Assembly: GCA_001724265.1 (NCBI GenBank)
Contig: MEDY01000082.1
Span: 1 to 64,000, forward strand
DNA from: Rhizaria sp. SCN 62-66
Taxonomy: Eukaryota
Direction: 5' to 3'
Length of the DNA: 64,000 bases
Each line of letters starts with the position of its first letter. Position 1 is the stretch's first letter. A program made the translations under genes and the position numbers. This document shows, in pieces, positions 3,201 to 62,359 of this stretch. The notes under the pieces were generated by a model. That model saw nothing but the letters and a program-made list of their open reading frames with translations. It did not search any database and had not been told where the DNA came from.

Positions 3201-6161
3201 TAATAGTGAAGACAGACGTGAGGGCGTTGGAAAGCGTGGTTGCAGCCTCGTTGGCAAGCACGGAAATGCTGTCGAACGCACTCATGCTAAAACTACTGCT
3301 GCTCATCATGCTCGCATTCAACTTCGCGTCATTGTTGCTGCTGTCATTAACGTTATTAACCACAGCCGCAGCCGCAGTAGCCGCAGTTGCAGTGGCCGCA
3401 GCCTCGGCAGCGGGCGTGAAGGACTGTGAAAGCGAATGTGAGCAGAGTGACTGTGATCCCCACGTCAGCAGTGACTGTGAGTCCGGCAGCGACGCGAGAA
3501 CCGGAGGGAAGCCGGACCTTTCCATCTTCTGCACCTGGACAGCTGAAGTGGAAACTGGAGGGAGAGCGGGCACCTCCGCTTTGTGCGCGCCGAGGGAAGA
3601 GTTAGGCGAGAGGGTCAGAGACAGCACAAGCACAGAGTCGGCTTCGCTGTTGTTGCCTTGAACACTGGCAACATCGGCAGCCTCAGCACCAGCCTTCGCA
3701 ACCGTTGCCACAACAGTCGCGGGAGCAACAACAGCAGCAGCAACAGGAACAGTGTTGCTGTTGTTGTTGCTGGTAACAGGAGAGAGCTTGATGCTGCTGT
3801 AACCACTGTTGGCAAGATTGTTGTTGTTATTGTAGTTACAGTCGTTCATAGACGTAGCAAAGTCGGCCATGTAAGTAGCCGCGTTCTCAACGCTGCCGAC
3901 GCGCTTAGTGTCAATGTAAGCGGAAGACAACGAGGTACTTAGACGGCGACCACTGCTAGAGCCACTGCTGAGAGCAGAGCTGCGGTTGTGGAAGCGGTGG
4001 TGCTCGCTCGCGCCGTGCTGCCATAGTAGCAAGGTGGGGGACGGGGACGCGAGCACAGAGTACACGTCGTACCACCGTGCCAGCGCCGTGGCGCGGCCTG
4101 CGTCGTCGCCCCCCGCCTCTTTACTATGCAGCAGCAGACGGGTGAGCGGGTGCGGCTGCGAGGCGGCGATCATAGACCGCAGCGGCTTGACTTTAAACAC
4201 ACTCACACTCGTGTGAGCGTTGTCGTTGTTGTCGTTGTGAGAGCTCATGATGTTCGCCAGTGTCGTCAGTGCCGTTGCTTTGGCGCTGCTCAAGGCACTG
4301 ACAAGACGGGTACTCACCATGTGGCGGCCCAGCGAGGCCACGAAGCTGAGCCGCTCGCGCAAGTTAAGCCGCGTCCGACCAATGCCACTGACAGCAGGCA
4401 CTTGACCGCTATTCCCAGCAGCAGCAGCAACAGAGGCATTAGTACTGGCAGTGCCGTTACGGTTGCTGTTCTGGTTTGCGTTTGTCCTGCTGTTGCCGAT
4501 GCGGCGGTAGCGGTTGCGCGTGTTGACATAGTGCGTCACAGCGCTCACGCGCCCGACGACACGAGGAGCCGCCTGAGCACGCGCACTCGCACTCACATGA
4601 GCGTTGGCATGAGCAGTGTTGGTGGGAGTGGTGGGCGTGCTGACAGTGGGTGCGCTGGCGATGACAGCGCTCACAGCCGCACTCAATGCGTGAGCGTTCT
4701 TGTCGCTGCCGTTGCCGTTGTTGTTGTTGTTGTTGTTGTTGTTGTTGCTGTTGTTCTTGGCCGCAGGTACCTTTGTCTTAGCCTGAACCTTAGCCTTGGC
4801 CTTGGCCTTGGTCTGAGCCTTGGCCGGAGCCTTGGCCACTGCTTTCGCATGGGACTGCAGCTGAGACTGCGCCTGCAAGTGTGACAATGAGTGCGCGTGC
4901 GATGCATTATGCAGCGACGCAGCGTCGACAAATGTGTAGTCATCCTCAGCAGCGGCGGGACCCAAGAGGGGGTTGGCGGCGAAAAACTCACTGAGACCGT
5001 CGCTGTAGCCCCTTAGATCGGCCGCGTGGCCGTAGGAGCCCCTTACCCCGCCGGTGTAGGCATAAGCGCCGCGCGGGGAGGTACTTAGTCCAGCGCCGCC
5101 GCCGGTGTAAGCAATGGGGGAGAGCTGGCGGGTAAGGGGGATCGACGATGTAAGTCCCTTGCTGCCGCCGCTGGTGCTGACGTAAGGGTAGTTGTGACCA
5201 GCTCCAACAGCAGCAGCAGCAGCAGCAGCAGCCGCGGCGGCAGCAGCAGCGCCGCGAGCGCGTGCAAGTACCTGGTTCTGCGATGCAAGTACCTGGCGCG
5301 TCAGGGGACGCGTGCGAGCACCAGTGTAGGCACTTACATTGTAGTTGTTTTGAGTAAGCGGCGTAAGTGTTGCAGAGCCTGACGGTGTAAGGGGAATGTA
5401 AGTGGGCGCGGCGGCGATGTAAGTGGTGCCGGAAGGACCCGCGTAAGTACCGCCAGCGATATAAGTGTCCTCACACAAGTACGTGTCATCAATCGCATTG
5501 GTATCAACAGCAACAGCGGCGGCAGCGGCAGTGGAGTTGGCCGCCGCAGAAATGTACGTGCGGTGATTGCTATAAGGGCTGCTGCTGCTGGAGAAGGCGC
5601 TGCTGGTGTAAATGTGGGGGTCAGAGCCTGAGCGACGACGCACAACACCAGGACCACTGGCACTCGCACTCGCACCGGCGCTAACACTCGTAGTCGCATT
5701 CGTGGTAGGAGCAGCAGTCGTCACTGATGCGTTCGCGGTGTGACCGTGACCGTGGCCGTGAGCGTGAGGCGTGGGAGCGAGAGTCGCGATGGGACGGTGA
5801 GTGTAACCAGAATCAGCCACATTCTGCTGCTGCTGAGTCGTGTTGTTGGTGGTTGGCGTCAGCAAAGTTGTTTGCTGCTGCTGTTGCTGTTGCTGCTGTT
5901 GCTGGTGTTGTTGCTGCTGGTGCTGCTGTTGATGCTGCTGCACGCAGCGGCGGATGTGCGAGGCGTGGTTCACCAAGGCACGGCGGCCGAGCTGAGCCTG
6001 CGAGGACTGTAAAGCCAAATGAGAAAGAAAACGTAAAACAAACGGATAAGACACAAGCGAGGAGAGTGAGTGGTAAGAAGCAGGGAGGCCGGCGAGACAG
6101 AGAGAGTTCAAGAGCTCGGATTCGAGAGCTCGAGAGTCAGTATGAAGACGGAACGTACCAT
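226..6161 (-). CDS. Large low-complexity protein of unknown function (~1927 aa), possibly mitochondrial with one transmembrane segment; exons 6161-6159 (ATG only) and 6006-226
   Basis: 5.8 kb open frame ending in TAA (226-228). The upstream ATG at 6161-6159 is followed directly by GTACGT, and a pyrimidine-rich ...ctttacAG acceptor at 6007 joins in frame to give MSSQAQLGRRALVNHASHIRR. Hydrophobic stretch IWEILLLALATSAVTFVAI near 2590-2645. No known domain recognised. Confidence 0.75.
4711..4754 (-). repeat. (AAC)n coding microsatellite encoding a poly-Asn tract
   Basis: Run of gtt triplets on + strand; translates to NNSNNNNNNNNNNGNG. Representative of many poly-N/Q/A/S tracts in the window. 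Confidence 0.9.
6007..6158 (-). other. Spliceosomal intron (152 nt) immediately after the start codon
   Basis: GTACGT donor, pyrimidine-rich body, CAG acceptor; phase-0 join supplies an ATG start for the 5.8 kb ORF. Confidence 0.75.
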
Positions 6162-6975
6162 CGCGGATAATAAAACGTCTGACGGTAGCCTTTTTGTCGC
6201 ACAGGAAGTGAGTGTAGTCTTTGTGTGCTTGTGTGAGTGTCTACACAGTGAGCAAAGAGCGCGAGTACGAAAGAGCGATGAGGGTTGGCGGGTGAGACTT
6301 TGGAGAAAGATAGGAGAAGGTTTCATCTTATTTTTGAAGATATAATAAAGGATGCTATAATATTTAATCACAAATTAACCAGGAAAACATGTTTGATATT
6401 AAACTGACGACCGGAAGTGCTTATTTAGTTGTTTTTCAAAGCCGACTTAGGAGGGCAGTTGGTCGGTGACTGTGGGCTACCTCTCGGGTCAAGCATGGCC
6501 ATCGTCAAACAATCCTCGAGGCGGCACTTATAGTTCAGTGATCTTCCTTATCGCTTTTAGGAGTGGTTATTTTACAACTTTTATTATATAATCCCTTCAT
6601 TGCGTGCCTTCACACGATTGCGATCCCTTAATTTGCGCTCTCCGCAGTGCTGGGTCACAGCGAGTCAATCTGCCTTGGAGCGTGCCTTGATTTCACCACA
6701 TCTATCCACCATCCACGATTCCAATTACTCTGTAATCTCTCTTTTCCGATTCTTACTTGGAATTTTTATCCAATTTTACTTCTCTTGTCCTTACGAAAAT
6801 TGTTCTTTACGCTTTAGGAGGTTGCTTTCAACCTCACTCGTCACGTTGCCCCTTCTCCTGAGCAGGCACTGGTGACAAAGTCACTCTTGCACTCGCCTTC
6901 TTATTTTCTTTGCGTTCTGCAAGACCCTGTAGTGAGAGTATCCGAGTATTGAGTTTTTGAGTCTGTTTGAGCGCT

Positions 6976-12900: not shown

Positions 12901-13593
12901 GTGCATGATACTGAAGCCGTGAGTATTGGCGCAAAAATTGTTCGTTTCATCAATAATCTCACTTCATTCAGTTGGGGAAGCAGCAGCGACGCTCCTAGTC
13001 CTCACAATGGCACAGGTCCTAGCACTAGTTCTCTCTCGAGCTCCAGTCGCAGTGCAGTTGCTGACGCGGCCGACGTCCCTGAGCTGCCATTGTCGCTGCT
13101 AACTCAGTCCCCGACTCAGTCGCCGATCCCTGAATTCACTGATTCTGGGTCCATCTCCGTCCCCGGCCCGAGCTCAAGCTTCGGCTTTGGATCAGGCTTT
13201 GGTTTAGGCTCCGTTTTTGGCTCTGGGTTTGGCTTAGTTTCAAGTAACAACAACAATAACAACAAATCGCGCATTCCTGCTGTTGCCACCGCAAGCACGA
13301 GTTCCACTGCGAGTTATCCCAGTAGAGTCGGCGTTAACGGCGTGCAGTTCGGCTTGGCGCCCGACTTGCCTATCGGCAACTGGGTGCCTGCGGCGTTTTG
13401 GTACGGCGTTCCCATGCCACGTCACTGGACGGACCTCCCCACTTCCTCAGCCTCCGCTGCCGCTGCCGCCGCCGCAGCCACAGCAGCTGCAGCGGCTGCT
13501 GCCAACGCAGCCACTGCACAGTCGACTGCCAACGCTTACTTGACGACCTCACCCGTCAAGAGTTACGGAAGCAACCGTGATGTGGTGTTTTGA
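6976..13593 (+). CDS. DHHC-type protein S-acyltransferase (Erf2/ZDHHC9-14-18-like), ~2205 aa, no intron needed
   Basis: Complete DHHC cysteine-rich domain [42 protein letters not shown] (DHHC at 9121-9132), DPG motif upstream, TTNED motif downstream, [12 protein letters not shown] N-terminal motif, flanking hydrophobic segments. First ATG 6976, stop TGA. Confidence 0.93.
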   Translation: [2205 protein letters not shown]

Positions 13594-13968
13594 TTTTAAG
13601 CGCTGACTCTTGGCATTGTTGCTCCCAAACGGTGTTTTCTTTGGGTAGAGTTTCATTTTTTTTGGTTTCATTCCTGATTCAACGATATTTTAGTTTTCAT
13701 TGACTAAAGTCGAGTCTTGTTTCATATTCATTTCGTCTAGAGCGTGCATAGCAAATGAATGCTTTCTGTTTTCCCCATCGCAAGTCCTTGTAGTACTTTG
13801 TATTTTCACCCGTTGGTGTTTCTATTATGATCGATGGAAACTAAATATTACGTGATATGTATGCGAGGTAAGCTAAATACATTTGTACAACTATTTCCCC
13901 CACTACTTGTCGAATTGGTGCTAATATAACTGAATCACGTCCATGTCGTCTTTCAAAAGTGATGAAGC

Positions 13969-16900
13969 TTAGTTTTTCGTGGCACTCAGACAGACGTCAC
14001 AGCCAGTGCACTGCACAGTCTCTGCGTCAGGGTCATCAAAGTACCGCATCAACGTCCGCCGTCGACACTCACGCTGAGGCTCGGCAGCTGCCAGACCGGA
14101 CGGCTCCATTATAACCTGCTTGTCGCTGTCAAAGCAGTAATTGATCATGTGCCCCAACAACGTCTTTGCACGCACGGCACCTTCTTTTAGCGTTCCGCGC
14201 TTGGCCTCATGCGCGATGATAAGTTCTGCAGTCTCAATATCACTCTCATCACACAACAAAAGACACTCGGCATGGCCTTTGTCGCGTCCCGCGCGTCCAG
14301 TTTGTTGATAATACCCTTCCAGCGTCATTGGCATACCAAAATGCACAATGCGTCGAATATCAGACTTGTCGATCCCCATTCCAAAGGCTGTGGTTGCCAC
14401 AAGCACGTCAAGCCGGTCATGGGTGAAATCATCCTGCGTCTGGCTTCGCGACTTTTGATCCCGGCCCGCGTGATAGACGCCCACGCGCAGCTGGCGCAGT
14501 TGCGGCAGGGCGGGCGGCGGAGAAAGCGGACTATCGATAGTTGGCACGCAACGGGGCGGAAATGTGTTGCCTGAGGCAGTGCGTTTGAGAGAGTACAAGT
14601 TAGGCCGCGGCGGCGAACGAACTGCGGCTGGGACACTTTCAGATGCAAGACTGATATCAGTCTTTGGCGCAGTGCTGTCATCACGCTTCACTCCAGTCGG
14701 CAACAAACTACTTGCGCTTAAATTGGCACTAACGCTGGCGCTGTTTGCAAAATTGTTTGCGTCTGCGCCTTTGTTATTGTTCATAAGCTCTGCTACGTAC
14801 GTTTCAACACGTTCGAGACTTGGCTCAATCCAAGACAGCTTACTTAAACTGCTCGCCAATTCGTCGGCATCCCTGCGTGTTTGGGCGTATACCACCGTCA
14901 CACCGCCCTTAAGTGCCCCGCATATCCATGGGTTGCGGCGTGGAAAAGTATCATCGCCGTCAACCGCATTTGCAGCGGATATTGCGGTCTCAGCAGCGCG
15001 CAGGATCGCATCGTTATTCGGATCAACATTTACAGCAACAGCTCCATGTTGATGTTGCTGCTGCTGCTGTTGCTCCAGCTGCTTGATACGCCACTGGCGC
15101 ACAATGCGGAGCTTGCGCCGAGTTATCTCAGCCTCACTGGGCACAAACAAAGACCGCAGGTCTTGATCGCAAATGTGCGCATCATTATTGCTGAAACTGG
15201 GAAAGGTCTTGCGACGAATAAAATATACCAGGTTGGGCCTGTTAACGGTGCCGATGTAGCGTGAAACTGGCAGTAGCTTTTCAAACCTTTGACTTGCACT
15301 GACACGCTCATTTAAACTACCATTGTTTCTCATTAAATTATCAGCGTACGTGAAGGTGCTTTGCCAAGGCTGTTGTTCTTGTAGACCAACTTGCTGAATC
15401 ACGTCATCAATAACCTCAGAGGTCGCCGTTGCTGTGAGACAAATCACTGGCAATTCCCAGCCCAGCGCTTCCCGCACTTTCGACAGCAGGCGGAACTCGG
15501 GCCGGAACTCGTGGCCCCACTCTGACACACAATGTGCTTCGTCAACGGCAAGAAGGCCGACAACACCGCGATGGCGCAGCAAACTTAAGCCGCGAAGCCA
15601 GCGCACCGCCTTTTCAGGTGACATGTAGACAAGCGCATACTAGCCGCCGCGCAAAAGGGCGTCGTACTCCTCACTGCTTGTCGTGCGGCTGAGATACAGT
15701 GCGCGCACGCCGCGCGCGTTAAGTCCAGCAACTTGATCTTGCATAAGAGAGATAAGGGGCGAAATGACAACCGTAGTAAGACCCGTTAGCAGCGGCGGCA
15801 GCTGATAGCAGAGCGACTTGCCTTGCCCGGTGGCTTGCATCACGAAGCTGTGGCGCGGCAGTGACACAGGGCCGGTCGCACGAGGAATAGCAGAAACAGC
15901 GGTAAAGATGTTGCTACCGGGCGCATTATCGTCATCATCATTATTATTGTCATCGCCAAGGCTGGAGCTTGCGTTTGCGTTTGATCTCTTGGGAGTAAAA
16001 AGAAAAGATGAGGTTGGGACTTTGCTACTGCCATCATCAGCATATGCGCTCAAAACAACGCCCGGGAACCCAAGTTCTTCAACTGGTCCACTGTTTTTCA
16101 TGATCATTTTGTTTAAGTCGGGCACATTAAACGCAAGAACAGCGTTGGTAACTGCGTTGAGCTGAAATGGTAGCAGACTCTCGCGGTCAATACCAAACGT
16201 GTTCTTTAGCACTGCTACTAGACGTGCAGTCACATGAACCGGCAAGTGAAGAGGAGGCTCGACACGATTTGCCGAAGATTGCGGCCGCGAGTGAGCTTTT
16301 GTTGGGCAATTTAAGTTGGGAGAGTTGTAACATGGCTCATCTTCACTTGCAGCACGATGTAAATGCTGCATCCCAACTACTGATGACGGCGGAGCCAAGT
16401 GCGACCGCGTTGTTGTGGCCAAGCCCTTAGCATGAAAAGCAGTGTTTAAAGAGCTACTTGCATTTGCAGCAGTTGTACGCCCAGACAGCAGATTACGCAC
16501 AGCGCTTGCTAATGCGACTTTCTTGCCAACAATCTTGAACTCGGCCTCAGTGCGCGCCAGCGTTAACAGTGCTAATAGCTGCGGCGTTGCCGGGACCTTA
16601 TTATCGACTTGAGCAATAACACGCTTAAAGATGCATTCATAGTAGCTCATAGCGGCAGTTTGTGCGCTATTGTGCGTGGTTAAAAGCGCCTGGCGTGCGG
16701 ACTGTGTGATGGCCACCACAACAGGCTTCAGCAGCACAAATGTATCGGGAAAATGACGTATCGACGTTATACCCAAGTACACAAATTTGGATAGGATTCG
16801 ATATCGCTTGTCCGCGTCTATGTCATCAGAGTCCCACTGCTGTAGTAGCGGCGGCACATGCTCCGCAAAAAACTCAAGCATTGTGATTGCATATTGGGAC

Positions 16901-19545
16901 CCATTTAAAGGAATAACAGCGTTGTCGTCGTTGTCATCATCATCCTCGCTGTCATTATCACCACCGCCGTTGTTGTTTTGGTCACTTGATGCAAAGAGTT
17001 GAATAAAACGAGATGCTAAGTCAAGATATGCGGAAAGAAAACGTGCGTCGAAGTCGCTGCAGAATGCGGTGCAGAGCCTAGGTGCAATAATCCATGCATG
17101 TCGTCCGCATGCGCGACTAGCATCGCTCCAAATCCACTAAACGTTGAAAACAACATTCTAGTTATCCGCATAATGCTTGACCACTGTCATCAGGGTAGGG
17201 GTTAGCGTCTGAACAATGCTGGCCACAATGGTCTTCAACTTTGACTGGTTCGCTTTGTCACGTGCCTTCGCGTTTACAACGGCAAACCTTATCAGCTTTA
17301 ACACTGTCACCGCATTCTCAGCGTCGGGCGTGCCCGCGGCAAGGTTTTTTACCAGCACGTCGACGAGCCTGTCAAACACGTGCCTCAGCCCTGTCACGAC
17401 AGATTTGGTATCAGGTAGCAGTGCGACGATGACTGTGATCACGGCGGCGAGTGCGTTCTCTTGCGCTTCGGAGCTCAGCGATGGTAGTAAGTCGTACATC
17501 TTGTGAAAAGTGGCCAGACTTGTCGACGCTAGCTCTGACGGCTTCACAACAGCCAGCATGTATAGTGCCGCTGCAGACGCGTCAACAATATTCTGGCCAG
17601 GCGCGGTAATGCCGTCGACAACAAACGCAAGCGCGGAGGCGAGCGCTGCACCAGGGTCAATCCAAGACGCGAGTGAGCCCAACACCAGCGTCGCCGCTGC
17701 ACGTAAAACGCTGTAGCTAAAGGCAACAGATGAGCGTAAGCCCTGCGTTTCAGCCGCGGGACGCACCGCATCAAGCATCCTGCACAGCTCTACGACTAGC
17801 GCAAGTAGTTGAGGTGGAATATCGATATTTGTGAAGTTATTGAATCTGAAGTCAAATATAAAGTTCATCAGGACATTGGCAATACCGCTAAGCGATGCCT
17901 CAAGCATTTGCCACTCTACATCAGTTTGCGCACTGCGTGTGTACGCCTGCAGCTCTTTGATGGCGAGTGGACTTACGACTTGAAGCGACGCACGCAACTC
18001 AAGGCAATCAACGAGGTAAAAAATTGCATTTCCGACTTTTGAAATATGCAATCGCAACTTTTCTAACACATCCTCTGAGAGGTCATGGCTGTCGCAGGGG
18101 TATTGAGCTGTCATTATGAGCGCAGTTAGAGCCCGGTTAAGCAGCTGGACAATCTGCGGCAAGCGCTTCTCCGCAACCTCGACGTGCATCCGCACGTTGG
18201 CCAACTCATCATGACGCATGCTTGCAGTTTTTGATGCGCAGGTAGCCTTATACTTGTCGCAACGCACCAAATTGGAAATATTATCCCAGAACCCAAAAGT
18301 CACTGCAGCCACTGTTTTGGAGCCCAGATCCCCACTTTTGACCCGGGCTTCAGCGTTTGTGCTAGGAGCCAGCGGCTGCACTTCAACAACCTAAACAACA
18401 GCTTCAAGCAAGGCAAGTCCGAAATCATCCCCACTAAGTGAAGCGCTTTGCCATGGCATAGCGGCACGACTGGGAGTGATAAATTCCCGGGACGATAGAG
18501 CCAGGTCAACAAAAACGTGACCCAGCGCAGCGGCTTCTGAAAAAGACCCATCAGTAACAAGTGACTTAAAATGTGACAGAAGAGGCAGAGTAAAAAATGC
18601 AAGGCGTCGCAGCTGCGCTTCAAGCTCAACATCGGCGAGCGCTGTGTACTCCGAAAGCAGCCCCGTGAGCACCCTGCAAGCATTGACAGTGAGCGCGGGC
18701 ACACGCACAGCGTCGAAGAGAGGACGGAAAAGCGCGTGCGACTGAAAAGCCATCGTATCAATAAAGCCCGCGTACACCCAATCTGACAAACAACGGAGAA
18801 CGGCGTTCTGCAAAGGAAAGTCATTCTTCTGCATTGCTTGCTGTCGGATTTGCGTGAGTTTGTCAAGTACGCGCGCTGACTCAGCTTTCAGAGCGGTCAG
18901 TGCAGTTTCCACCACGTAGTTGCGCAGCTCGTTGCATGTGGCGCCGGGCTTTGATGCCGCAACCTTGGCCGTCACAGTCACTTTGATTTTCTCAAGCTGC
19001 GGCGCCGACAACGCATCTATATCAAATGTTATCTCCGCTGAGTACGACATCTGGGCTGCCGTAGCTAAAACTTCCATCAGCGCCGTGCTTGCGGCAGAGG
19101 AGCTTAACTCTGGGTCCTTGCAGTAGCGCGCGCAGACGTCCGGCACGGCGGTGGGCCACTAGCCCGCGCCCGAGAGGTGGTACACGAGCACGCCCACGCA
19201 GCGCGCCAGCCGCGTCGTCACCTGCGCGTACGGCGAGAGAAGGAAACGGTCCAGGTGCCACAACAGCGTGTCGCGGAAGGCGGCGCGCACGGAGGCTGAG
19301 GGCAGCTCGCTGAAGCGGGGCTGCAGCAGGTGTGTGAGCAGCGTGTCGGCAATCCATGAATAGTGCTCCATCTGCAGGTCAGGGTGAGAGAGCAGCTGGT
19401 CCAGGACTTCCCACGCGATGGGCTGGGCCGAGACCCACGTCAGGTAGCGGCTCGCCTTGTCGCGCGCCTCGCTTTCGACTGTGGGCAGGTAGAGCACCGT
19501 TAACGCCTCGCGGCACTGCGCGACGAGTTCATCCCGCGTTGCCAT
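13969..19545 (-). CDS. Importin-13/transportin-SR-like helical region fused to a RecQ helicase (1858 aa), read through five in-frame TAG codons
   Basis: Five listed ORFs (19159-19545, 18391-19146, 17158-18381, 15640-16881, 13969-15624) share one frame and are separated only by TAG (19159, 18391, 17158, 17137, 15640). RecQ motifs: ATGQGKSLCYQLP, VVISPLISLMQDQV, DEAHCVSEWGHEFRP, LTATA, YHAG, VATTAFGMGIDK, YYQQTGRAGRD, Zn-binding CRR..LMRYF..C..CD.C. The N-terminus resembles an importin-beta N-terminal domain (RDKASRYLTWVSAQPIAWEVLDQLL). Ends in TAA. Confidence 0.8.
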
Positions 19546-20532
19546 GTGCAGAGAGTGGGAAGATGAAAGAGTCCGTCAAACTAAAATTCCCTCCACTCCT
19601 CCAACTGGAACTCTTTCCGCGTTATGTGCACCACTAAAGGGTGACCAAAGAATGAAAAGGCAACGGAGGCGTGGTAAAAGATTATTACTACTCCACCAAC
19701 AGCAATATGTATGCTGAAAGTAATGAATATGAACAGGGACGGGAGGAAGGGAGTGAGCGAGAAGGAGGATACCAAAGTGAGACCGTAAGTTAAGATGGAG
19801 ATGATTGTGCCGTCGTATGAATGATTTAGACACCCTTACTTAAAATTTTAGAGTAAAATTACGTAGTAAACTGCAGCAGCGTTAATTAGTGTCTGATAAC
19901 AAAGATATCACAGGTAAAATTCCCAAATCATTTGGATCGCGTCCAGCCTCCGCGACTCCACATACAGTCGCCCCGTCTGGGGACGTGGGAATTATAGAGT
20001 AATATGTTTCATATCAGCAAAGAGCACAATAGATTTTATCATTTTCTGAATGGTAAGGTTGACAGGTCTCTATAGATAGTACTTAATCTGCGTCAACATG
20101 TTTTTTCAATGTGTTGCTGTCAAGCTGTAGTGATACTTTCATGTTTGCAACGCGCAACGGCTATTTGAGTCGCAACAGAAACCTACACATGTTTGAATCT
20201 TTGAAGACGCAATGTTATTCTTCGGCTAAATCGGTGTGAATCACCTCCACATTCAGAAGCAAAGTGCGCAGCTGCGTCAGCTCATACAGCACAGGACCGC
20301 CACTTTCTTGAGCGCACTCATTGGTGCAAGCATCCACACAAACATAAAAATAATGCATTTTCATAAGAGGTCAAAGACTGAGCGTTGAAAATCAGCATGT
20401 ATGACATATTACCAGATATAAAACGTTTAGACAATGATATATATAAAATCAAGCACACAAATATTCCTATAAAACTACGATAAGCTTATCAGTTACTCAA
20501 GGGTACACACAGACGGCTGCACACAATAAGTC

Positions 20533-32147: not shown

Positions 32148-32170
32148 CAACAACAGCAGCAACAGCAGCA

Positions 32171-32210
<40 letters not shown>
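32148..32210 (+). repeat. (CAG/CAA)n microsatellite, poly-Gln in the frame continuous with the ABHD17-like gene
   Basis: About 20 consecutive CAR triplets. Confidence 0.85.
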
Positions 32211-32212
<2 letters not shown>

Positions 32213-32966
32213 CCGGTCCTTCGGCGACCCCCGCACCGCTTTCGACTTTGTTTTTGAACGGGGCGCCCCTAACGCTCCCACAACCACCAACAGCAACAAA
32301 GCTAATTCGAGCACTCCCCACAAAGCGCACACAGGCGTAAAGACAAAGCACCACAGCAAGTCTACTGTAAGCGAGAATCGGTCGATTCCAGCGAAGCACA
32401 CCGCCGCTACCGCCGCCGCCGCCGCCCTCGCTGCCGCCGCTGCTGACTCTGCCTCTGCCGTTGACTCGGAGTCTTCAGTGAGTGTAGGTGCTGCTGCCGC
32501 TGCCAAGGCTAGTTACGGTTCGTTGCGAGACTCGCCCAGCCAGCCCACTGCGTCCGGCGCCGCTTCCCCCGCTGAGGTTTACAGCTACAGCTACAGCCGC
32601 TGGGACAACACTGTTGTAAGCAACAACACTCAAGCCAAACACAAGGGCAAGAGCCACAACAATAGAGTCCCGAAAGCTGCTGCTCGTGGATCGAACGCGA
32701 AGAGCCACTCGAACTACACTCGTTTCGACGACGAAAGCGAGAACGTTACCCACAGTCCCGAAGACGACGACAACGGTAATCGCAACTCTTACGCCGACTT
32801 TGACGACAACAACGAGCACGACGATACTTTTAGCGACGAGTCTGACAACTTCCCTTTCCCTTCGGACCGTTTCCCCGCAACCCCTTACCCCGCCGTCACC
32901 CCCGCTCTAAGTGCCCCCTTACACACCGGCAGCTCTAGCACTGACGACGAAGAGAGTATCTTCCAA

Positions 32967-35737: not shown

Positions 35738-38700
35738 TTAACACTTGTTGGCGCGCGGCTTGGGGTCGAACTCGGTTGTGAGGGGCGCGCGCGTCCATTC
35801 AGAGACGCGGCCGCCTTCTTCTTCCTTGAGGGGGCAGTCCTCGTACGTCATCTGCTCCAGCTGCTTGACGAAAGCCGCCGACTGAAGCGAGGGGCGGAAG
35901 CGGTCCTTGTAGACGGCGTAGCGCTGACGCAGGATGTCCGTGTTGAGACTGGGGCCGGGGAAGTAGAACGGCATGATGCGGAGATACGCCGCAGTGTCGA
36001 CCACGTCCTGAGTCACGAAAATAACCTTGTCAATCGTCCGGCGGTTGCTGATCACATCGAGCCAGCGCCGCGCCGTCAGCGTCGCCACGTGAACGGCGTT
36101 GTAGGCAGGATAGTTCTTGCTGGCAATCGTGAGCGGCGGGATTGCGATCGTGTGCATCTGTATAGTTGATCAAAAAGCATAGCAAAGGTCCGACGAATAG
36201 AATCAAGTGAGGATTTGAAGATATAGATTAACTCAAATTACATTAATATAATTTAAAAGGGAAACTGTTTCAGAAAAGTTTGCTTAGTTTTGACGCGATT
36301 TGTTCAAGTGTGAGATATTTTGCGTACCTTATGCTTCTTGGCAAGGTCGAGCGCGCCCGTGATGCACTTCTCCATCGCGTCCTGGTCGAACGCATCTGGC
36401 ACCATTACGTGGATGACGTACTTGGCCGGCAAGTCGTAGCCGAGCGTAATCTTGCACTCTCCGACCCGCCACTTGCGGGCCGTGGCGTCCAGCTCCTGCG
36501 ACAGGCGCCCGCCCGCCGCCGCCGTGAGGGCTTTGTTGACGGAGTTCGAGAGTACCTTGTACTCGGAGACGGGGTTGACCACCGCGTCAACCTCGAGCGT
36601 GGTGAGATCGCCCTCGAACCACGAGACCAGCTTGTTGATCTCGGTGTTGGCTTCGCACGGCATGTCCTCGGGGACGAGCGGGATGTCGCGGTCACGGGCG
36701 TCCTGCCAGAGCAGCTTTAGCGCGGCGTCGCGCTTCTCTTCGTCCTTCATCAGACGCTCAGCGCTGCTCTGGCTGTTGTCCGCGGCCGCGAACTCGGTCG
36801 CTTCGTTCTCAGCCTCTTGCAGTAACACCTCGGCAAGGTCGTCGTCGTTTAGCTCCCACTTGCTGTGACCGTCACTGTCATCGCTCTTATGAGCGCTGTT
36901 GCTGTCAGCGCTGCTGCTGCTGGGGCTGTTGTTGTTGACGTGGGCGTGAGCGTTGTCGATGAGCGACTTGGCAAGGGCCGTCGTGTTGGTCGAGTTAGCG
37001 TTGTTAGAGAGAGTGGACGAGTGAGGCGACAGCATTGTGGTGTTCGTGCCGTGGGCGTTAGCGTTGGTGTTGCCGTTGTAGCCGAGAAGGCTGCTGGAGT
37101 CGACCGTGGTCACCGTGTTGTTGTTGCTGTGGCTGTTAATGTGAGTGTGTGCGCTCGTGTTGAGGATAGCGCCGTCGTAGATTTGCCCGTGGCCCCACAC
37201 AGCGCGCGCGGCAGCCACAGCGGTGTCGCCGCACTCGCTGCCACCGCTGCCCAGGTTGACACCGCCGCTGATGCCGTCGCCGCGCTCGCGCTCGCAGTCG
37301 CTGTCGCAGTCGTCGTCGTCCTGCTCGCGGCCGCAGTCGCTCTCGTCGTCGTCGTCGTCGTTGTCGTCGTCGCACTTGGCCTTGTTGCTGTGGCCGTGCG
37401 AGCCGCCCTTACTCGTCTTGACGGTCGCACCCTTAGACTTGCTGTGCGACTTAGACGCCTTGGAAGCGGCGGCAGCACTCTTATCAGTCTTCTTGCTGCT
37501 GCCGTGGCCCTTGGACTTGTGGCTGCGGCCGTTGTTGCTATGAGCAATGTTGCTGACAGTGACGTGGCCCTCAACACTCACAACGCAGTCACCGCTTGCA
37601 ATGACAGCAGCAGCAGCGCTGGCGCTAACGTCACTGCAAGCCTTGTGAGCGTTGCTGCTGTGCGGGTGCGCGTCAGAGGTGTCGACTGTGCTCGCGTTTG
37701 TGTTAGCACTGTTGTTGTTAGCAGCAATAGCGGCAGCAGCAGCGGCAGCGGCGGAAGAAGGCGACATGGCAAACGCAGTACGGCGCGCTGCCTGGCGCTT
37801 CTTGCGCGCACTTACCCGATCTAAGTACCTAGCGTCCCACGCCGCGAGCTGCTGATAGTCGTAGTAATCCTTCGCGAATCCGGGATCCCAGAAGCATTTG
37901 GTGAGGTGGTGCAGCAGTGCACGGTCAGACGGCAGCTTGTGCTTGTTATTGGTTAGGATTTCGCCCATCTCGGCCTTAAAGTCCTTGACAGCGCGCGCGC
38001 GGCGGTCGAGCTCGGACGCGTACATCGCCTCGGCCTCGGCCAAGTTGAAGTTCGATCGGCGGAGGTACGTGCGCACTGCGGTGGGATCGTAGTCCTCAAC
38101 TTGGTCCGGGTGAAAGCGGCGCAGAATGCGCGGACGCAGCTCTAGGTAGGCCTTGTCGGCGGCGAGAGAGAAAGACACGGCTGTCTCGACCTTCCACGAC
38201 GCGTCGCGCAGAAGGCGGTACGCGTCGTTGTAGCTGAGGGTCTTGGCGCCGTTGGTGCGGCGCCAGACGGTAGCGAGAACGGCGTTGAGCTTGTCGTAGA
38301 CCTCGAGGGCTTGCTCGATTGTGCGGTCGTCGTAGTGGATCATCGCGTTCTAAGCGGAAGCAAAGATGCAGGGAAAGCAAGAGTGAAGCGAGAGAGCGAG
38401 AAAGCAAACATAAATGTGCGAGATGTGAGTGTAGACTATATTTCAATTTGTAACTACCCAATTATGTTTAGGAAATATAAAGCACTTATAATTGGTTTTT
38501 TTCGCGGGCCTGCGACTTGAAGTCGCGACTTCAAGTGACTGTAGGACCTGTGTGTGAACGTACGAGTTGGTTCTCTTTGGGGTAGCCGATTGTGGGTGCA
38601 TCGGTGCGCGGGAGCTTGGCGATATGCGCCTTGAGCGCGCTGCGCCATGCCTTGAGCTTGTCCTCCTCCTTCATCTCCATCAGGAGGTACTTGGCAGCGG

Positions 38701-45358: not shown

Positions 45359-48300
45359 ATGAGCAGCACTCCGTCAGAGCAAGCCGGCTCTAGCTCGAGC
45401 TCTTGCTCTGGCTCTGACTACGACTCAATCTGCGCCTCAAGCTCCAGCTCTAGCTTTGATGCTGCGACTACCGCTGTTGCGGCGCCCGTGCTAGCAGGCC
45501 CCGTTCTTTTGTGTAGCGCAACAGCAGCAGCAACATCAGCAGCGTTAGCGTCAAGTGTCGACAACTATGACTCGAGCTTGAGCTCTCGCTCTTGTTTCAG
45601 TTCCAACTCTTATTCGATTATTCATACAGTGTCTCAAGGTCACAGCACCACATACTGCCCTGTCACTCCCTCCTGCTCCTCGGCCAACTGCGACAGTTCT
45701 ACTGCTGCTGCTGTTGCTGCTGCGGCTACCACGCTGGGGGCGCTGAGGCGCGACTGCGACCTCATCGTGAGGCGACTTGTGCCGTCAGCCGCTGACGCTG
45801 CCAAGAAGGCGTCGGCGTACGCTTTCATCACGAAGGTACGGTAATGTTCCGAAGCCTTAGCGAAATCAACTATATTCTGAACAGAATTCCGCACATGGAC
45901 GTTTTCGTCATCTCGACATCACCCCTGTAATCTGTAACGTTGTCTCGCAGTCTCAACAACTCCAACCTTTGGTTCCTTACTCGCCTCTTTATTCGCCTCT
46001 TTGTTGACAGCTGATAACGCGCGCCTACCCCAGCGCACTGCCTTTTCTCTTCGGCTCCACCCCGCTGCGGCTCTGTTTCGCCTCCTCAGACGTCGACGTG
46101 GGAGTCTGTCTCACCGCGGCCGACAGTAGGCACTTTTTCACACGGCTGAGCAGCATGTTGCGGATCTACGCAGACGGCTACGCTCGCGGCCGCCACAATA
46201 ACAACAATAACAACAACAGTAGTAGTGGTAACAGCAGTCATACGGGGACGAGAATGACGAGTCGCCGCAACAGCCACGGCAACATCAGCGCGAGCGCGAC
46301 TGCCAAGAGTGATAAGAGCAATCGGCGCAAGCACCTCGCGCAGGCGCAGTCGTAGAGTCAGAATCAGGGAGTTGCATTGATTCCGCCGCTGGTACCGATG
46401 TGCCGCTCGTGTGCTTACCCTGCTCTCCCGCACACGGGAGCTGCCAGTGCTAGGAGCGCAGCAACAGACGTGGCAACTGCTTCAGTGCAAGTGCAAGACG
46501 AGGGCCGGGGCCGGCTGAGCCTGGGCGTGAGGGCAGCGCTGCTCCTGCAGAATCAGGCTCTACGCATCGGTTACAGTCAAAGCATCAACAGCAACATGAG
46601 CAGCGGCGATCCCAACGGCAATAGCAGTCGTGACAAGAGCGCGTGCAGTGATATCTCGAGAGATGGCAGCGCTCCTGTGTGTGCTGAGGAGGAGCATAAG
46701 AACACTCTCCCTGCCTCAAGCAATTACAACACACAGGCCGATAACAAGAGTAATGTTTTGATTTCTACGAACGGCAGTGCTGTGGCTGGTTGCACTAGCT
46801 CTCGCGTTGTGTGCTGCCGTGTCTGTGGGAAGCCCTTAGACGGCCTCGCAGCCCTTACAACCACACGTAGAGCACCGACCAATAGCACGACCAGTGCAAG
46901 CGCCTTTGATAGCGCCGGCTCTGCTGACGAGGCAACGAACGACTCCACCACTAACATGAGCAGTAGCGTTTTCGCAAGCACACAGGCGAGTGACGCTGAC
47001 AAGAACAACAACAGCAATAACAGCAGCGCGAACGCGACGAGCACCACCGCGAATAGCGCGAATGGGACTGCTGCGAATACTGCGGCTGCGGTCGCTGCGC
47101 CTGGCACCAGCTCTGCCGCTGCCGCGAATGCCGACGCGTGGCTGCCGATCACCGCGCTCACCTTCACCCAGGTACGCATTTATTCATCAACTCAACGCTA
47201 TTGACATTTTCCCTGAACTTCGATGTCTGGTTTTATGTTCTCTTTATATATTCTGCATTCTCTCTAAACACTCTTCTCCATTTCTCTTTTCTTCCCCCTA
47301 AACGCATCTCAACACGCAGGCCGAAGTGCCCGTGCTCAAGTGCAACATCGCGGGCGTCTCGGTCGACATCACCACCAACACCGCTGCCGCCGTGGCCACC
47401 GCGCGCGCCACCGAAGCCCTCGCCACCGCCATCGGCCGCGGGTCTCTGCTCAAGCGCTCCGTGCTGCTCTGCAAGGCGTGGTGTGGTGACGAAGCCAAGG
47501 CGCTGGGCTCGTCGGTGTTCATGCTGTCTTCGTGTGCGCTCACGGTCATGGTGTTCTACGTCGTCAACTTCCACATGCGGCTAAACTTAGCGACGAATAC
47601 CAAGGGCCGCCTGAGCTTAAAGCAGCACGCGGGTGAGGGCCGCGGCGCAGACTCGGACTCCGGGCCACACGCGGGATCTGGCGGCAGTGGCGAGAGCGAG
47701 GGTGCGGATGTAAGTACCCCCTTAGACGTGCTGCTGGTGTTCCTGCGCGTGTTTGCCACGTTCGACTTCTCTCGCTTTGCGGTGACTGTCGCGGGGCCTG
47801 TGGGCGTGCGCAACCCAGCGCACCCGCCATTGACTGCCCCTTGCCCCCCACCCCCCCAGCCACTGCAGTCTCAGCCTTATCCTCCGTCTGAGTCCGGCGT
47901 ACCGTCGCGGTCGCAGCCTCCGTGTCTGTCTCAGTCTCAGTCGCAGTCTCCGCGGGTGAGCTTTGCGGGTCGGCTGGCTGCGGGGGCGCTCGCAGGAGTG
48001 GATAGTGTAGGTGCTGGTGGTACTTACAATAGTGTAAGTGCCGCTGCGCACCTATGCACTCGTTTCACGCTACCCTTGCCTGTGCAATCCACCGCCACTC
48101 CCACTGCCATTGCCACTGCCACTTCAACTGTTGCTGCTGCCACAGCTGCCGTGACTGAGAGCTGCACGCACAGCTCAAGCGGCGTTGGCGCGAGTCCCAG
48201 TGCGCGCGTCAGCGTTGCGGGTGCCGCTGTTGGAGTCGACGTCAACGTCACCGTCAACACTGACACCGAGACCGGCAGTGACGGCGAGAGCGAGAGCGCG

Positions 48301-51300
48301 AGCAATGCCGAGAGCGACAGCGAGGCCGTTGCGGCGATCGCGATCACGGCTGCCGGCGCGAGTGAGAGCGACGACGACGACGACGGTGCCACCAACACTG
48401 CGAACGCTGGCCATACGAGCCCTACACACAACAAGACGAAGGCTGCCGCGGCTGCGAGCGCTGCTACTGCCGCTCCTGCTGCCATCGCGACTGATGCAGC
48501 TGCTGCCGCTTTGGCCCCTGTCGCGACTGCACATGTGGCGACTGTGTACACTGCTAGTGCGCCCGTCTCGGTCGTCGCCGCGGCCCCTGTGGTGGTTGCG
48601 CCGACCGCCGTTGCGCTGGGCCTGCCCTACCCCACTCTGCCGCTCGCTCAGTACTACAAGAACAACAGTATTCACAGCAACAACAACAACTTCAACAGCA
48701 GCAGTCTAGGGAATGTTAGCGCGCGCGGCAGTTACGACGGGGACGGCGACTGTGATGACGAATGCCAGTGTAGCTGCGGCTGCTGCTCTGGCGCTGAGCC
48801 GGCGGCTTGTTTTCATTACAAGCCGCTGGTGCCGCTGAAGGCGTTGCAGGACATTCTGCTCTCGTCTAGTAATGCCACGGACAAGGACGTTGCTGACTTC
48901 AAGTCGATCGCCGCAGTCACTTCGCGCGGCAGCAACGCCAACGCACCTGATACGAGCTCAAGCTCTCGTGCTGTTGCTGATGTATTGGCGAATAGCACAA
49001 GTAACGCACCTATTGCAGTGAATACCTGCGAGCAAGAGAGTGAAGAAAAGTTGACGACCGCTAGTTCAAGCTCCAGCTCTAGTCAAGGTGATTGCACTTG
49101 TACGTGCTCTTCTTCTCGTCGCCAAGGCGGCTTGACATCCTCAACTGGCGGCTTATCTTTCGGCAACACGCTGTTCTGGCTGTCGGCCTCAAAGCCCCCG
49201 CTATTTCTCTCAACCACAAGCACGGCCAACGGCCACTCTGCTCACAGTCACTCTGCTCACGGTCACCCTACTCACGGTCACGGGCACGCTCACGGCCACT
49301 CTCACAGCCACACGCCGCCTGTGTTGTCGCGCGCTCCGACGCCCGTTCCCGGCGCAGTCTCCGCAACAACTGCAACAGCAACAGCAACAGTGGCTGCAAC
49401 TAACCCTGTTGCTGTGGGCGTGGCCCCGGGCGTGGCCACGGTTGAGATGACCGCTGTGCCCGCCGCAGTCGCTGCCGCGACAACGGCAGCGCCCACGGTC
49501 ACTAGCTCTGCAGCCACAGCCACTGCGCCTGCTGCAGCAGTGCCCGCAGTCGCAGTGACAATGCCCACGGTCACTTCTGCGCAGCCCACGGTCACGACCG
49601 CGCACTCGCCGCCGCTGCCCGTGCTGCCCACTGCGCTCACAGTCACCGACATCCTCGACTGCACGCGGAATGTAGGCCGCTCGGTCTGCGCTGCGGCGGC
49701 GGCGCGGCTGCAGGGCGCCTGTCGCCGCGCGCTTGCCACGATCGCTGTCGCGGTCACTGCGCAGAGCCGCATCAACAACCGCAGCGCTGACGCTATGCCC
49801 TCTAACGGTACTTACACCGGGTCTAAGGGTACTTCCACCGGGTCTACTTGCGGTTGGGGCGCTGCGAGCGCTGTGGCCGCTGCGCTGGCTCTGGAGCCGT
49901 TGCCGACCGACTGCCCCGTTGCGCTGGCGTCGCTGCAAAACGAGGTGGCGACCGTCACGCTCCAACAGCAACAGCAACGCATGAACAACTACAACAACAA
50001 CAACGCGGCAAGCGTTCGTGACGGTAATGGGAGTGAGTGGCTGTTGCCGCTGTTGTTTCCTGTGCTGTCACGGGCGCTTTTCCCGTCCTCGTTCAGCTAC
50101 AGCAGCAGTCTCGCCAACGCAAAAGGCGCGATTGCTGCAACCAGTGCGACCGAGACGGGTTGTGTGAGTAGTTTGCGCCCGCCGTCGTGCAAGTACCCCC
50201 TTAGCCGCGAGTGCAAGTGCTCCTGGTGTAAGGGCTCTGCCGATGTTGACTTGACTGGTGACTCGCGCAAAATCGACAAGATTTATTCTTTGGTCAAGGC
50301 CTACACTGCTGCAACGACGGCAGCAGCGGCCGCGGCGGCAGCGGCCGACAGCGGTGGCAACGGTGTTCGCGGTGGCGGTGGCGGGAACATTAGCCGCGGC
50401 GGCTCTCCGTTCCTCAATAGCACAACCAACAATCCGAAGCAGTATCACACGGACGGCGGCCATTACCGCGGCAGCAATGCCCACAGTCACTACCGCGGCG
50501 GCGGCGGTGGCGCCCACGGTCACTCTGCTCACGGCCACGGTCACGTCCACGGCCACCGTCACGGCTACAATAATCACCAGTCCCAGCAGTACCCGCAGCA
50601 GCATTACTACCAGCAGCAGCAACAGCAGCAGCACGGTGCCTCTGTCCCGGCGGGCATGGCGACCCACACGCCGTCTCAGTCCCCGTCGCCGTCGCCGTCG
50701 CACTCGTACGCGCACTTGCACTCACTGTCGCATCTGCAGTCGCTGGGGCAGCAGGCCCAGGGCCAGGAGCACAGGCAGCAGCAACAGCAGCAACAACAGC
50801 AGGGGTATTATAGGGCGCATACGCCGCCGCTGCACTCGCAGTCGAGCTATAACCACGGCAATAATAGCGGCGAAGGCAATCAGTGCCAGTACCAGCAGCA
50901 GCAATATGGTGGTAATCAGCAGCAATCTGGTAACAACAGCAACGGCGGTTATTATGGCAACCATAGCGCTGGCGGCAAGCAGCAGCAGGGCTGGGGCAGG
51001 TCCTATTCGAACTCCTCGCTGTCACGGCCGCAGTCGCCTTCTTTGCACACGGCCAACGCCCACAACCAGCACGGCGGCAAACAGCAGGGGCAGCAGCAGC
51101 AGCAGTCGCGGTCGCGTCCGCCGTCTCGGTCGCAGACGCCCTCGTTGCCGCAGCAACAGCAGCAGCAACACTCTGGTAACGTGAACAACAGCTCAGAGCA
51201 GATGCAAAGCAACAGCAACAACGCCAAGAGTGCTCCTGCGAACAACAACAAGCCTGCTGTTGACGCTGCATCCAGCGCCGCTGCTAGCGGCAACAGCAGC

Positions 51301-52425
51301 AGCGAGCAGTCTCATCAGCAGCAGCCGCCGCAGCCGCTGACGTACGCCGAGCGCATCAGGCGCGCGGGCGCCACCCTCAGCGCGTTCACGGCAGGGGTTC
51401 AAGCTGCCTCCGCCGCGGCCGCTGCTGCTTCTGCAGCCGCTGCCGCCGCAGCCGCCGCCGCTGCTGCGAGCAACACCGGCACGTCTGCCGTCAGTGCTGG
51501 CACTGTAGCGAGTGCGAGTGGCGGCGGCGGCGGCGGCGGCGTCGGTTTGCCGCCGCCGTCGCCGTCGCCGTCGGTGCTGCACAAGAGCGGCGGCGGCAGC
51601 AGCGCGATGACGCAAGCGCAGCGGCTGCTGCTGGCGCACAAAGAGCGCTCGGACAAGCTCGCGCTAACTTTTGCGTCGAACAACAGCAGCAGCAAGGCCA
51701 ACGCGAGCCTGAGTGCCAAGACGGGTGCTCCGGGCGCTGCCGTGACCGCTGCTGCGGGGAATAATAAGGCCGCTTCTGCTGGTGTCAATACCATGGCAGC
51801 TAATCTAACTGCTGGTGCTCCTCCCAGGTCTCCGGTCAAGCCGAGCAATACAAGCGCCTATAGCGGTGTCGCTGGTAGCAATGCTGCTGGCTCTGGCTCT
51901 AGCTCCGGCTTTGTCGCCGTTAATGCGGGCGCAATCGGCAGCTGGCGCAGTAACGCCGCCAGCCCTAGCACGAGCGCTAGAGCGAATGCGAGTGCTAGTG
52001 CTAACGCTACGAAGCATTCTGAGATCTCTACCGCGAGCACTCCTGTCGCAACGGCCGCGACTGCTGAGGCTGCCGCTAAGGGTGATTCCGCCACGACTAA
52101 CTCTAGTGGCGACATCGACGATGACGACGACGATGACGACGACGGCAGGCCCGTTGACATCACCGACATCAGCGGCAGCAGCCGCGATGTGGGCCGCGCC
52201 GCCCGCGTCTTCTCGGCGGCGGCGCTTACGAGGGCACTCGCGGCGGCGACCGGCATGAGTTCGCCGCACTTGCTCGCCGCGGGCAATCACTCTCACAACA
52301 ACAGCAACAATAACAGCAACAACAACAGTAACGCGAATGCCAATGCCCACGCGGGCTCTGGCGCGGCTGCGACAGACGCTGGCGCGAATAGTGACGCGAA
52401 CGCGAGTCTTAACAAAACAGGCTAA
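45359..52425 (+). CDS. Non-canonical poly(A) polymerase/terminal nucleotidyltransferase-family protein (Pol-beta NTase plus PAP/OAS1 substrate-binding-type domain), ~2247 aa; exons 45359-45835, 46011-47171, 47320-52425; one in-frame TAG at 46353-46355
   Basis: FGSTPLRLCFASSDVDV (GS + DxD), AEVPVLKC...VDIT (third Asp), LLKRSVLLCKAWC, PLDVLLVFLRVFATFDF...GPV, DILDCTRNVGRSV. Two phase-0 introns. Stop TAA. Confidence 0.85.
45836..46010 (+). other. Spliceosomal intron (175 nt)
   Basis: GTACGG donor, ...ttgttgacAG acceptor, phase 0. Confidence 0.82.
47172..47319 (+). other. Spliceosomal intron (148 nt)
   Basis: GTACGC donor, T/C-rich body, CAG acceptor; join gives TFTQ-AEVPVLKC. Confidence 0.9.
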
Positions 52426-61226: not shown

Positions 61227-61675
61227 CCTCAAGTTAAGTAAGAGTTCCTGTGGCTTTAAGAAAAATATAATAAAATAAATAAAAGTAAAAAGTCAGATTT
61301 AATCAAGATTCACACGTAACACTCCTTAGCAACGACTAACTATGACAGTATATGCTCGTCAAAAGTTTGCATTCCTCCTCTGGACTCCAACGGCTATATC
61401 GATCACCATTGGTCAGCACTAACGAGCCCTTTCGATCATTCGTCAGCGCAGCCTATAGATCGTCTAATTGAAACAGTATATGCGTATCCAACTGATATTA
61501 AATGCTTTAATATATGTGTCGACAGTATGCCTTTGTCTCATGAATAAACTTTATACATGTACATTTTGTACATGTACTGTAGACTAGTATTCTCACATGC
61601 GCACTAGAACAGCAGTTATAGGGAGTGGTTTTATTGATGTGTGTGGCAACTTGTTTTTTGGTTCCTGATGGCTGA

Positions 61676-62359
61676 TTAGTGTATGACGCCGACTAAGCGA
61701 TGGCGCTTGAGGTAGCTGAGGATTCCTGAGCCACATGGCACTGAGCGCCGTCTTGCTGGATGACGTAGCTGCTCAGACCGGGCCCAGTGAGTCGCTCTAA
61801 CACCTCGATGAAAACAGGGCTGTCGAAGCTCCCCTCGTAGACCATGGGAGTGATTCGCCGCGTCTTGCAGATGCCCCACCATACCGCGACCGCGCCACCG
61901 TAGTCGCTGACCTCCATGACCGGCCGCTCGCCAATACGTTAGTGAACGGCAGCGCCACGGCGGCTGATCCTGAAGACCTTCTCGTCGGTTAATATGGTCT
62001 TGCTCCAGTTGTGAGTGCTGTACTTCTTGGCCAAGGGCCTTCTTGGACTGACCGAAACGGATCTTCGCGCGCTTGAGCGCAGTGCGGAAGGTGGCGACGG
62101 AGAAGTTAAGGCTCATCTCTCTCATCACAATCTCGTACTTGTCGGCGTTCTCCAAGTTGTTCTTACGGAACCCAATAGCAGCGAACTCCGCCAGACGCTT
62201 GTCACGGATGAGGTGCTTTCGACCTTGACCCCGCATGGGACGACGATCTATCACAGGCTGGCACGGGCGGCTGTAGCGCTTGACAGTACTCTTGGAGACT
62301 TTAAGTTGGCGCGCGATGCGACAATTAATTATACCCACCATGAAACCGATTTGTTTCAA
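61676..62359 (-). mobile_element. Degenerate Tc1/mariner-superfamily transposase fragment
   Basis: HTH-like IARQLKVSKSTVKRY; after a frameshift near 62035, WSKTILTDEKVF (first Asp), VAVWWGI and QQDGAQCH (second Asp). In-frame TAA at 61939-61941; SPDLNPIE region absent; no terminal inverted repeats found. Confidence 0.85.

Follow-up and report, generated by a model that had tools for sequence, protein, structure and literature searches.

Contig MEDY01000082.1 was analysed over its first 64,000 nucleotides, which are referred to as the 64-kb window. On the reverse strand of the window, a karyopherin similar to TNPO3/IPO13 is joined to a RecQ helicase in a single reading frame, and this fused gene contains in-frame stop codons of one kind only, TAG. 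Whether these codons are translated, i.e., whether UAG has become a sense codon in the organism, is the subject of this study. The DNA of the window is nuclear and belongs to an uncultured eukaryote of bioreactor and wastewater communities. Near-identical DNA, covering the whole stretch or a part of it, was found in bioreactor, wastewater, and activated-sludge runs (nine rows from six studies), and at least half of the words of the window were present in four of the nine rows. Long genes with a GC content of 0.53-0.66 occupy both strands, and AT-rich spacers (GC <0.40) lie between them. At least two GT-AG introns with a common donor were recognized (Table 1), and the one in the Macro-domain gene assigns the window to a eukaryotic nucleus. 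The best outside matches of the RecQ part were proteins of Paulinella micropora and P. chromatophora (43-45% identity over about 30% of the query), and this hints at Rhizaria only weakly.

The first-pass annotation had described the 5.6-kb frame as one RecQ gene. This description was not borne out, as amino acids (aa) 1 to about 1020 are similar to transportin-3/importin-13 and the RecQ core spans only about aa 1100 to 1858. A linker of about 80 aa precedes the core, no stop lies between the karyopherin part and RecQ, and the boundary of the two parts probably falls at Met1059. In a Pfam search of the fused protein, DEAD, Helicase_C, and RecQ_Zn_bind were found, together with a weak Xpo1 match. 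The karyopherin part has two stand-alone homologues, i.e., P0121 (1058 aa, 51% identity) and P0124 (1096 aa, 35% identity). In P0121, the transportin-3/importin-13 TPR domains were below the cut-off and Xpo1 was again weak. The RecQ part has no RQC or HRDC domain and carries long low-complexity insertions. Its core was aligned with Escherichia coli RecQ (1oyw) at E = 3e-59, and the Walker A, DEAH, TATAT, FGMGID, and GRAGRD motifs and four zinc-binding cysteines were all in place, so the helicase motifs are intact, as had been claimed.

The junction of karyopherin and RecQ, near 16250-16500, lies in one open frame. Stops are abundant in the other frames of 16.0-16.5 kb. In the databases, the fused gene is present as at least five separate pieces split at the TAGs (P0001, P0002, P0122, P0123, and P0125). 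P0001 was present on six contigs and P0002 on five.

Translation of the fused gene gave 1858 codons and a terminal TAA, with five internal stops that are all TAG, at the positions reported in the first-pass annotation. No TAA, TGA, or frameshift was found. Between the TGA at 19578 and the TAA at 13971 these five TAGs are the only stops of the frame, whereas 142 and 95 stops were counted in the two other frames of 13600-19900. The location of the fifth TAG inside the RecQ core, between motifs Ia and II, was confirmed by alignment to RecQ proteins. A sixth TAG was found in a second gene, on the forward strand, which had been called a nucleotidyltransferase. The TAG itself stood, but the family label did not, since Pfam gave no match in either exon and the motif had been recognized by eye. 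Over 12 gene segments (16,985 codons), the in-frame stops were TAG 6, TAA 0, and TGA 0; in-frame TAA or TGA as common as TAG, which would have spoken for pseudogenes, was thus not seen. TAG is the rarest codon by far, with a usage of 0.35 per 1000 codons. The 3' contexts of the six TAGs (TGG, GTT, AAT, TGG, TAT, and AGT) were as described before. They have no common feature, and a shared context of the kind that stimulates programmed read-through was not recognized.

Table 1. Position of the fused gene, its TAG codons, and other features of the window
Feature	Position	Strand	Remarks
Fused TNPO3/IPO13-like karyopherin and RecQ helicase gene	13969-19545	-	One 1858-codon frame, terminal TAA, five in-frame TAG
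TNPO3/IPO13-like part, aa 1-1058	16372-19545	-	Homology to stand-alone homologues stops near aa 1020
RecQ part, aa 1059-1858	13972-16371	-	Helicase motifs and four zinc-binding Cys present
TAG 1, aa 129	19159-19161	-	Block GAG[E]WPTAVPD; homologues E, E; unchanged in poly(A)-RNA contig
TAG 2, aa 385	18391-18393	-	Homologues Q, T
TAG 3, aa 796	17158-17160	-	Homologues Q, P
TAG 4, aa 803	17137-17139	-	Homologues V, V
TAG 5, aa 1302	15640-15642	-	LRGG*YALVYMSPE, between RecQ motifs Ia and II; homologues E, D, K, Q
TAG 6	46353-46355	+	Exon 2 of second TAG gene; CAG-rich context AQAQS*SQNQ
Exon 2 of second TAG gene	46008-47171	+	Low-complexity; contains TAG 6
Exon 3 of second TAG gene	47320-52425	+	1701 codons, no in-frame stop, ends TAA
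GT-AG intron	36158-36327	-	Macro-domain gene; donor AG|GTACGCA
GT-AG intron	47172-47319	+	Donor AG|GTACGCA; joins exon 2 to exon 3 in phase
Probable GT-AG intron	45836 to ~46007	+	Short, AT-rich
TAA gene ends	226, 13969, 20533, 24857, 35738, 52425, 54519
TGA gene ends	13593, 34625, 44356, 52900

The TAGs are stable across samples. In three DNA runs, each of a different study (2015, 2017, and 2025), the contigs cover all five TAG sites of the fused gene and match the window there, although the 2015 run may be the source of the window itself. Five differences from the window, all at other places of the fused gene, were found in the 2025 run. Assembly errors, which had been named as a possible origin of the TAGs, are therefore not supported by these contigs. 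Run X2 differs from the window within the fused gene by three synonymous and two non-synonymous changes, too few for a selection test. At 19180-19199, where the 5' part of the fused gene is rich in GC (0.71), the contigs of all three DNA runs break, and an RNA contig bridges this place.

In a poly(A) metatranscriptome, a contig matching 18949-19259 with no other letters showed the TAG at 19159 unspliced and unedited. The listed RNA pieces cover this one of the five fused-gene sites, so removal or change of the TAGs in RNA was not seen there, and the finding holds for that site only. In RNA run X5, no depth was found in the bins 13571-14237, 17573-18239, and 19574-20240, two of which hold intergenic DNA. 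These gaps would fit real RNA over DNA carry-over, yet uncovered contig stretches are not evidence.

P0121 and P0124 were aligned free of gaps through all four N-terminal TAGs, and with the RecQ alignments all five fused-gene TAGs are flanked on both sides by ungapped homology. Because this homology runs through each of them, the five TAGs are not intronic; introns at the TAGs were rejected on this ground and on the local GC content, which is not intron-like. The sixth TAG lies in a low-complexity exon that has no homologue for alignment. No GTACG donor was found between 46008 and 47172, and the sixth TAG is therefore not in an intron of the local type.

At the RecQ site, E and D were found in the two Paulinella proteins, K in P0187, and Q in E. 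coli RecQ. The same column in 118 homologues contained K 38, Q 28, E 16, R 15, and L 10. Polar residues (E, Q, K, and D) prevail at the TAG sites, as expected for Gln or Glu, and these two amino acids would fit best as the encoded residue, judging from the alignments. Leu was rejected as the encoded residue, as it is absent from the nearest homologues at all five sites and accounts for 10 of 118 residues in the RecQ column. Trp was also rejected, with no homologue carrying it at any of the five sites.

Eleven well-bounded gene ends were recognized in the window, i.e., TAA 7, TGA 4, and TAG 0, and each adjoins an AT-rich spacer. The ten ends listed in the first-pass annotation were all correctly given as TAA or TGA, but the list was incomplete, with an eleventh end, the TAA at 24857, overlooked. 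Many genes ending at TAG, which would have contradicted a code change, were thus not seen in the window. Among the frames of at least 150 codons with a coding score of at least 0.3, none ended with TAG, six with TAA, and eight with TGA. A short frame with a good coding score at 62729-63556(-) contains two TAGs 9 bases apart (PVD*VF*PDP), followed by an in-frame TAA at 63118, 128 open codons, and a TGA end, and has no Pfam match. The short frame 63116-63553(-) is left out of the tally of 11 ends. Behind the terminal TAA of the fused gene, in the AT-rich 3' flank, five in-frame TAGs occur within 50 codons (13824-13923(-)).

The distribution of the TAGs follows codon bias. The fused gene has a GC content at third codon positions (GC3) of 0.56, compared with 0.65-0.83 elsewhere, and shows the weakest codon bias and the lowest coding score of the window. 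The weak bias is common to its two halves. With an even spread of TAG over the codons, the probability of at least five of the six TAGs falling in the fused gene would be 8.5e-5. ATA, the rarest standard codon, is concentrated in the same way, with 12 in the fused gene, in both halves of it, and 4 in the other 15,127 codons. If TAG tracks the share of ATA, the same probability becomes 0.53, and with GAA, ATT, TTA, AAA, and CAA as the yardstick it is 0.001-0.005. From the weak codon bias and the ATA-like skew, it follows that TAG behaves like a sense codon under strong avoidance, one that is allowed where selection on codon usage is at its lowest.

Few codes assign UAG and UAA different meanings; in PMC5304391 and PMC11687900, such codes are reported from one fornicate, one rhizarian, and a few ciliate lineages. 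In the fornicate Iotanema spirale, UAG is Gln and UAA and UGA are stops; 204 UAG were counted in 126 genes, 22 of 28 hyperconserved sites were Gln, and UAA outnumbered UGA as terminator by 104 to 15 (PMC5304391). The window resembles this system in having only UAG in frame and only UAA or UGA at gene ends, and in its non-ciliate origin, and the UAG of Iotanema is itself called occasional in that text. It differs in its six UAG in 2 of 12 genes, in having no clean Gln signal, and in a TAA:TGA ratio of 7 to 4. In the rhizarian exLh, UAG is Leu, with 384 UAG in 71 genes (PMC5304391). The likeness lies in the reassignment of UAG only, in a UAG use that varies strongly from one gene class to another, and possibly in membership of one supergroup, given the Paulinella matches of RecQ, but Leu is unfit in the window. 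The phyllopharyngean ciliates Hartmannula sinica and Trochilia petrani read UAG as Gln, and three TARA metagenome-assembled genomes (MAGs) read it as Leu (PMC11687900). The window shares with these ciliates and MAGs the sense UAG, the retained UAA terminator, and the discovery from metagenome or genome data; unlike the ciliates, it is GC-rich with ordinary GT-AG introns.

The reading in which UAG is a sense codon of very rare use and UAA and UGA act as stops explains the observations best and is considered somewhat probable, although 64 kb cannot prove it. The first-pass annotation, which had proposed this code, is supported in part, by the fact that all six in-frame stops are TAG, by the absence of TAG from the 11 gene ends, by the absence of other lesions, and by the conserved blocks around the TAGs. 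A number of observations weigh against it. Only 2 of the 12 genes bear TAG, and five of the six TAGs lie in one structurally aberrant fused gene. In the UAG-only ciliates described in PMC11687900, UAG occurs in 78-91% of genes and makes up 18-32% of Gln codons, and the usage in the window is far below that of every UAG-only case given there and in PMC5304391. The count of gene ends is a small sample; if TAG ends 10-30% of genes, as in the standard-code phyllopharyngeans of PMC11687900, the probability of 0 in 11 is 0.3 to 0.02. The frame at 62729-63556(-), if it is a real gene ending at its first TAG, would be a counter-example, and if it is read through the TAGs, its in-frame TAA still needs an explanation. 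The residues of the homologues disagree, i.e., no single residue suits all sites (E/E, Q/T, Q/P, and V/V in the karyopherin part), and V/V at aa 803 is a conserved mismatch to any polar residue. CAG to TAG is the commonest nonsense path, so Q-like sites cannot separate sense from nonsense. The gene itself is also suspect. In both P0121 and P0124 the C-terminus is formed by a conserved tail of about 95 aa (ending ...MHALKGE.FEDD.DW), which the fused gene lacks, and the closest long RecQ relative, P0187 (1948 aa), has the same reduced domain set with RecQ at its own N-terminus. In a tblastn search of the window with the C-terminal 128 aa of P0121, no credible match was found (best E = 0.085 at 47.5 kb, on the other strand). 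Among the relatives (proteins of 1021-3252 aa, best match P0187), the fused form was not found. The arrangement looks like a lineage-specific fusion by deletion, which may have killed both genes.

The main rival to a sense UAG is therefore a young pseudogene under the standard code, in which a truncated TNPO3-like gene became linked to RecQ through a deletion, neither gene stayed functional, and the five TAGs arose by transition-biased decay, the sixth being an independent recent nonsense mutation. The removal of the tail by the fusion fits this scenario, and so do the lowest GC3 and coding score of the window; 13 of the 14 differences between samples are transitions, which favours CAG to TAG, and Q is found in P0121 at two of the four TNPO3 sites, while the sixth TAG lies in a CAG repeat. 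Neutral decay was modelled with the codons of the fused gene itself, with transition bias and GC-to-AT bias varied widely. In this model, 46-51% of new nonsense codons were TAG, so that the probability of five out of five is 0.02-0.034 and about half of that with the sixth included. Five nonsense hits would also be accompanied by 119-195 substitutions in all, an amount of change at which several frameshifts would be expected in 5.6 kb from usual indel rates; no frameshift was found, and none of the approximately 5 TAA or TGA that such neutral change should bring was seen in 1858 codons. Like a unitary pseudogene, the gene has in-frame stops and has lost a conserved terminal segment, but mixed stops, frameshifts, and lost catalytic residues are all absent, the RecQ motifs and zinc-binding cysteines being intact, and the lost karyopherin tail is the one lesion-like feature. 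A recent decay of about 3% cannot give a GC3 of 0.56, and the weak codon bias must therefore be long-standing. In a three-way comparison, the branch of the fused gene (221 unique sites) is no longer than that of P0124 (196). The scenario further requires two broken genes of 12 and, separately, the absence of TAG from 11 terminators by chance. A pseudogene is accordingly regarded as unlikely, though it is the explanation to be taken most seriously after the sense codon.

An ambiguous UAG is less probable again. Here, eRF1 would still recognise UAG, and a near-cognate or low-abundance suppressor tRNA would suppress it enough for a few weakly expressed genes, giving the codon a leaky or dual meaning. 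Ambiguous stop/sense codes are reported from other eukaryotes in PMC11687900. The extremely low usage of UAG, its confinement to the least codon-biased gene, and the lack of TAG terminators, as expected if UAG terminates poorly, agree with such a state. However, after five serial suppressions little full-length protein would remain if they were not all efficient, and efficient suppression at each site would be equivalent to reassignment; the six 3' contexts also have no shared feature. Ambiguity of this kind shades into a sense UAG and cannot be separated from it here. Very little credence is given to removal or change of the TAGs in RNA, i.e., splicing, or adenosine-to-inosine (A-to-I) editing of UAG to UGG (Trp). 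Such editing occurs in sexual-stage transcripts of some filamentous fungi, and UAG, the only interruption found, is the codon that it corrects. But the RNA contig over the TAG at 19159, one of five sites, is unchanged, the homologues lack Trp at the five sites, and homology runs straight through each TAG without an insertion.

Other features of the window were also noted. The introns are short, AT-rich, and of the GT-AG type, and their donor is strictly AG|GTACG(C/G). On the two strands of the window together, the heptamer GTACGCA is found only five times, and two of the occurrences are the donors of the introns at 36158-36327 and 47172-47319. Poly-Q, poly-N, poly-A, and D/N-rich runs are inserted in almost every protein of the window, including between the RecQ helicase motifs, e.g., at 15000-15100, 16880-16990, 32150-32230, and 4700-4780. 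When metagenome contigs are aligned to the window, these runs attract numerous false joints and loose ends. In the gene ending at 226, the frame is open for about 640 codons upstream of the first ATG without another ATG (4321-6240(-)). Just beyond this open stretch lie a TAG at 6243 and a TAA at 6330, and the true start is perhaps in an upstream exon or at a non-ATG codon. At about 61300-62300(-), frame-shifted pieces resemble by eye a decayed Tc1/mariner-type transposase; Pfam gave no match on the one piece tried, and the label is unconfirmed. No Pfam families were found in the short frames at 61.7-63.5 kb, 38.5 kb, and 45.3 kb.

No tRNA genes and no Rfam families were found in the 64-kb window, and a gene for eRF1 is not among its contents. 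In a metagenome scan for further contigs, the matches listed (at least 590 stretches, with low-complexity peptide patterns) included only two unrelated RecQ loci, with 31-33% identity. An exact 40-mer search of viral_contigs gave no match. In the literature searched, no paper linking UAG sense codons with wastewater protists or Cercozoa was found, the supplements of PMC5304391 and PMC11687900, which perhaps contain per-gene UAG counts, lying outside the search.

If UAG is a sense codon in this organism, it would no longer terminate translation, and a tRNA with the anticodon CUA would insert an amino acid at it, with Gln or Glu the most probable. UAA and UGA would be the sole remaining terminators, and UAG, like ATA, would be tolerated almost only in the gene of weakest codon bias. 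A more specific proposal can be made tentatively, and it is somewhat doubtful. The window, from a protist that is not a ciliate and possibly is a rhizarian, may record an incipient capture of a stop codon, in which UAG was cleared from the terminators and freed from eRF1 and is just reappearing as Gln or Glu (about 0.35 per 1000 codons) in the weakest-selected genes. Such an intermediate stage is predicted by code-change models and is not known from any described lineage.

In practice, standard gene callers cut the genes of the window's organism at TAG. If UAG is indeed sense, the organism would be a further independent non-ciliate member of the small group with UAG as sense and UAA and UGA as stops, and unusual in its sparse UAG. 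UAG-only codes matter because they break the usual coupling of UAG and UAA. If the usage is truly this sparse, the organism would be at an early stage of reassignment, and the order of events, i.e., the loss of UAG terminators, the change of eRF1, the gain of a CUA tRNA, and the spread of the codon, would be open to direct study.

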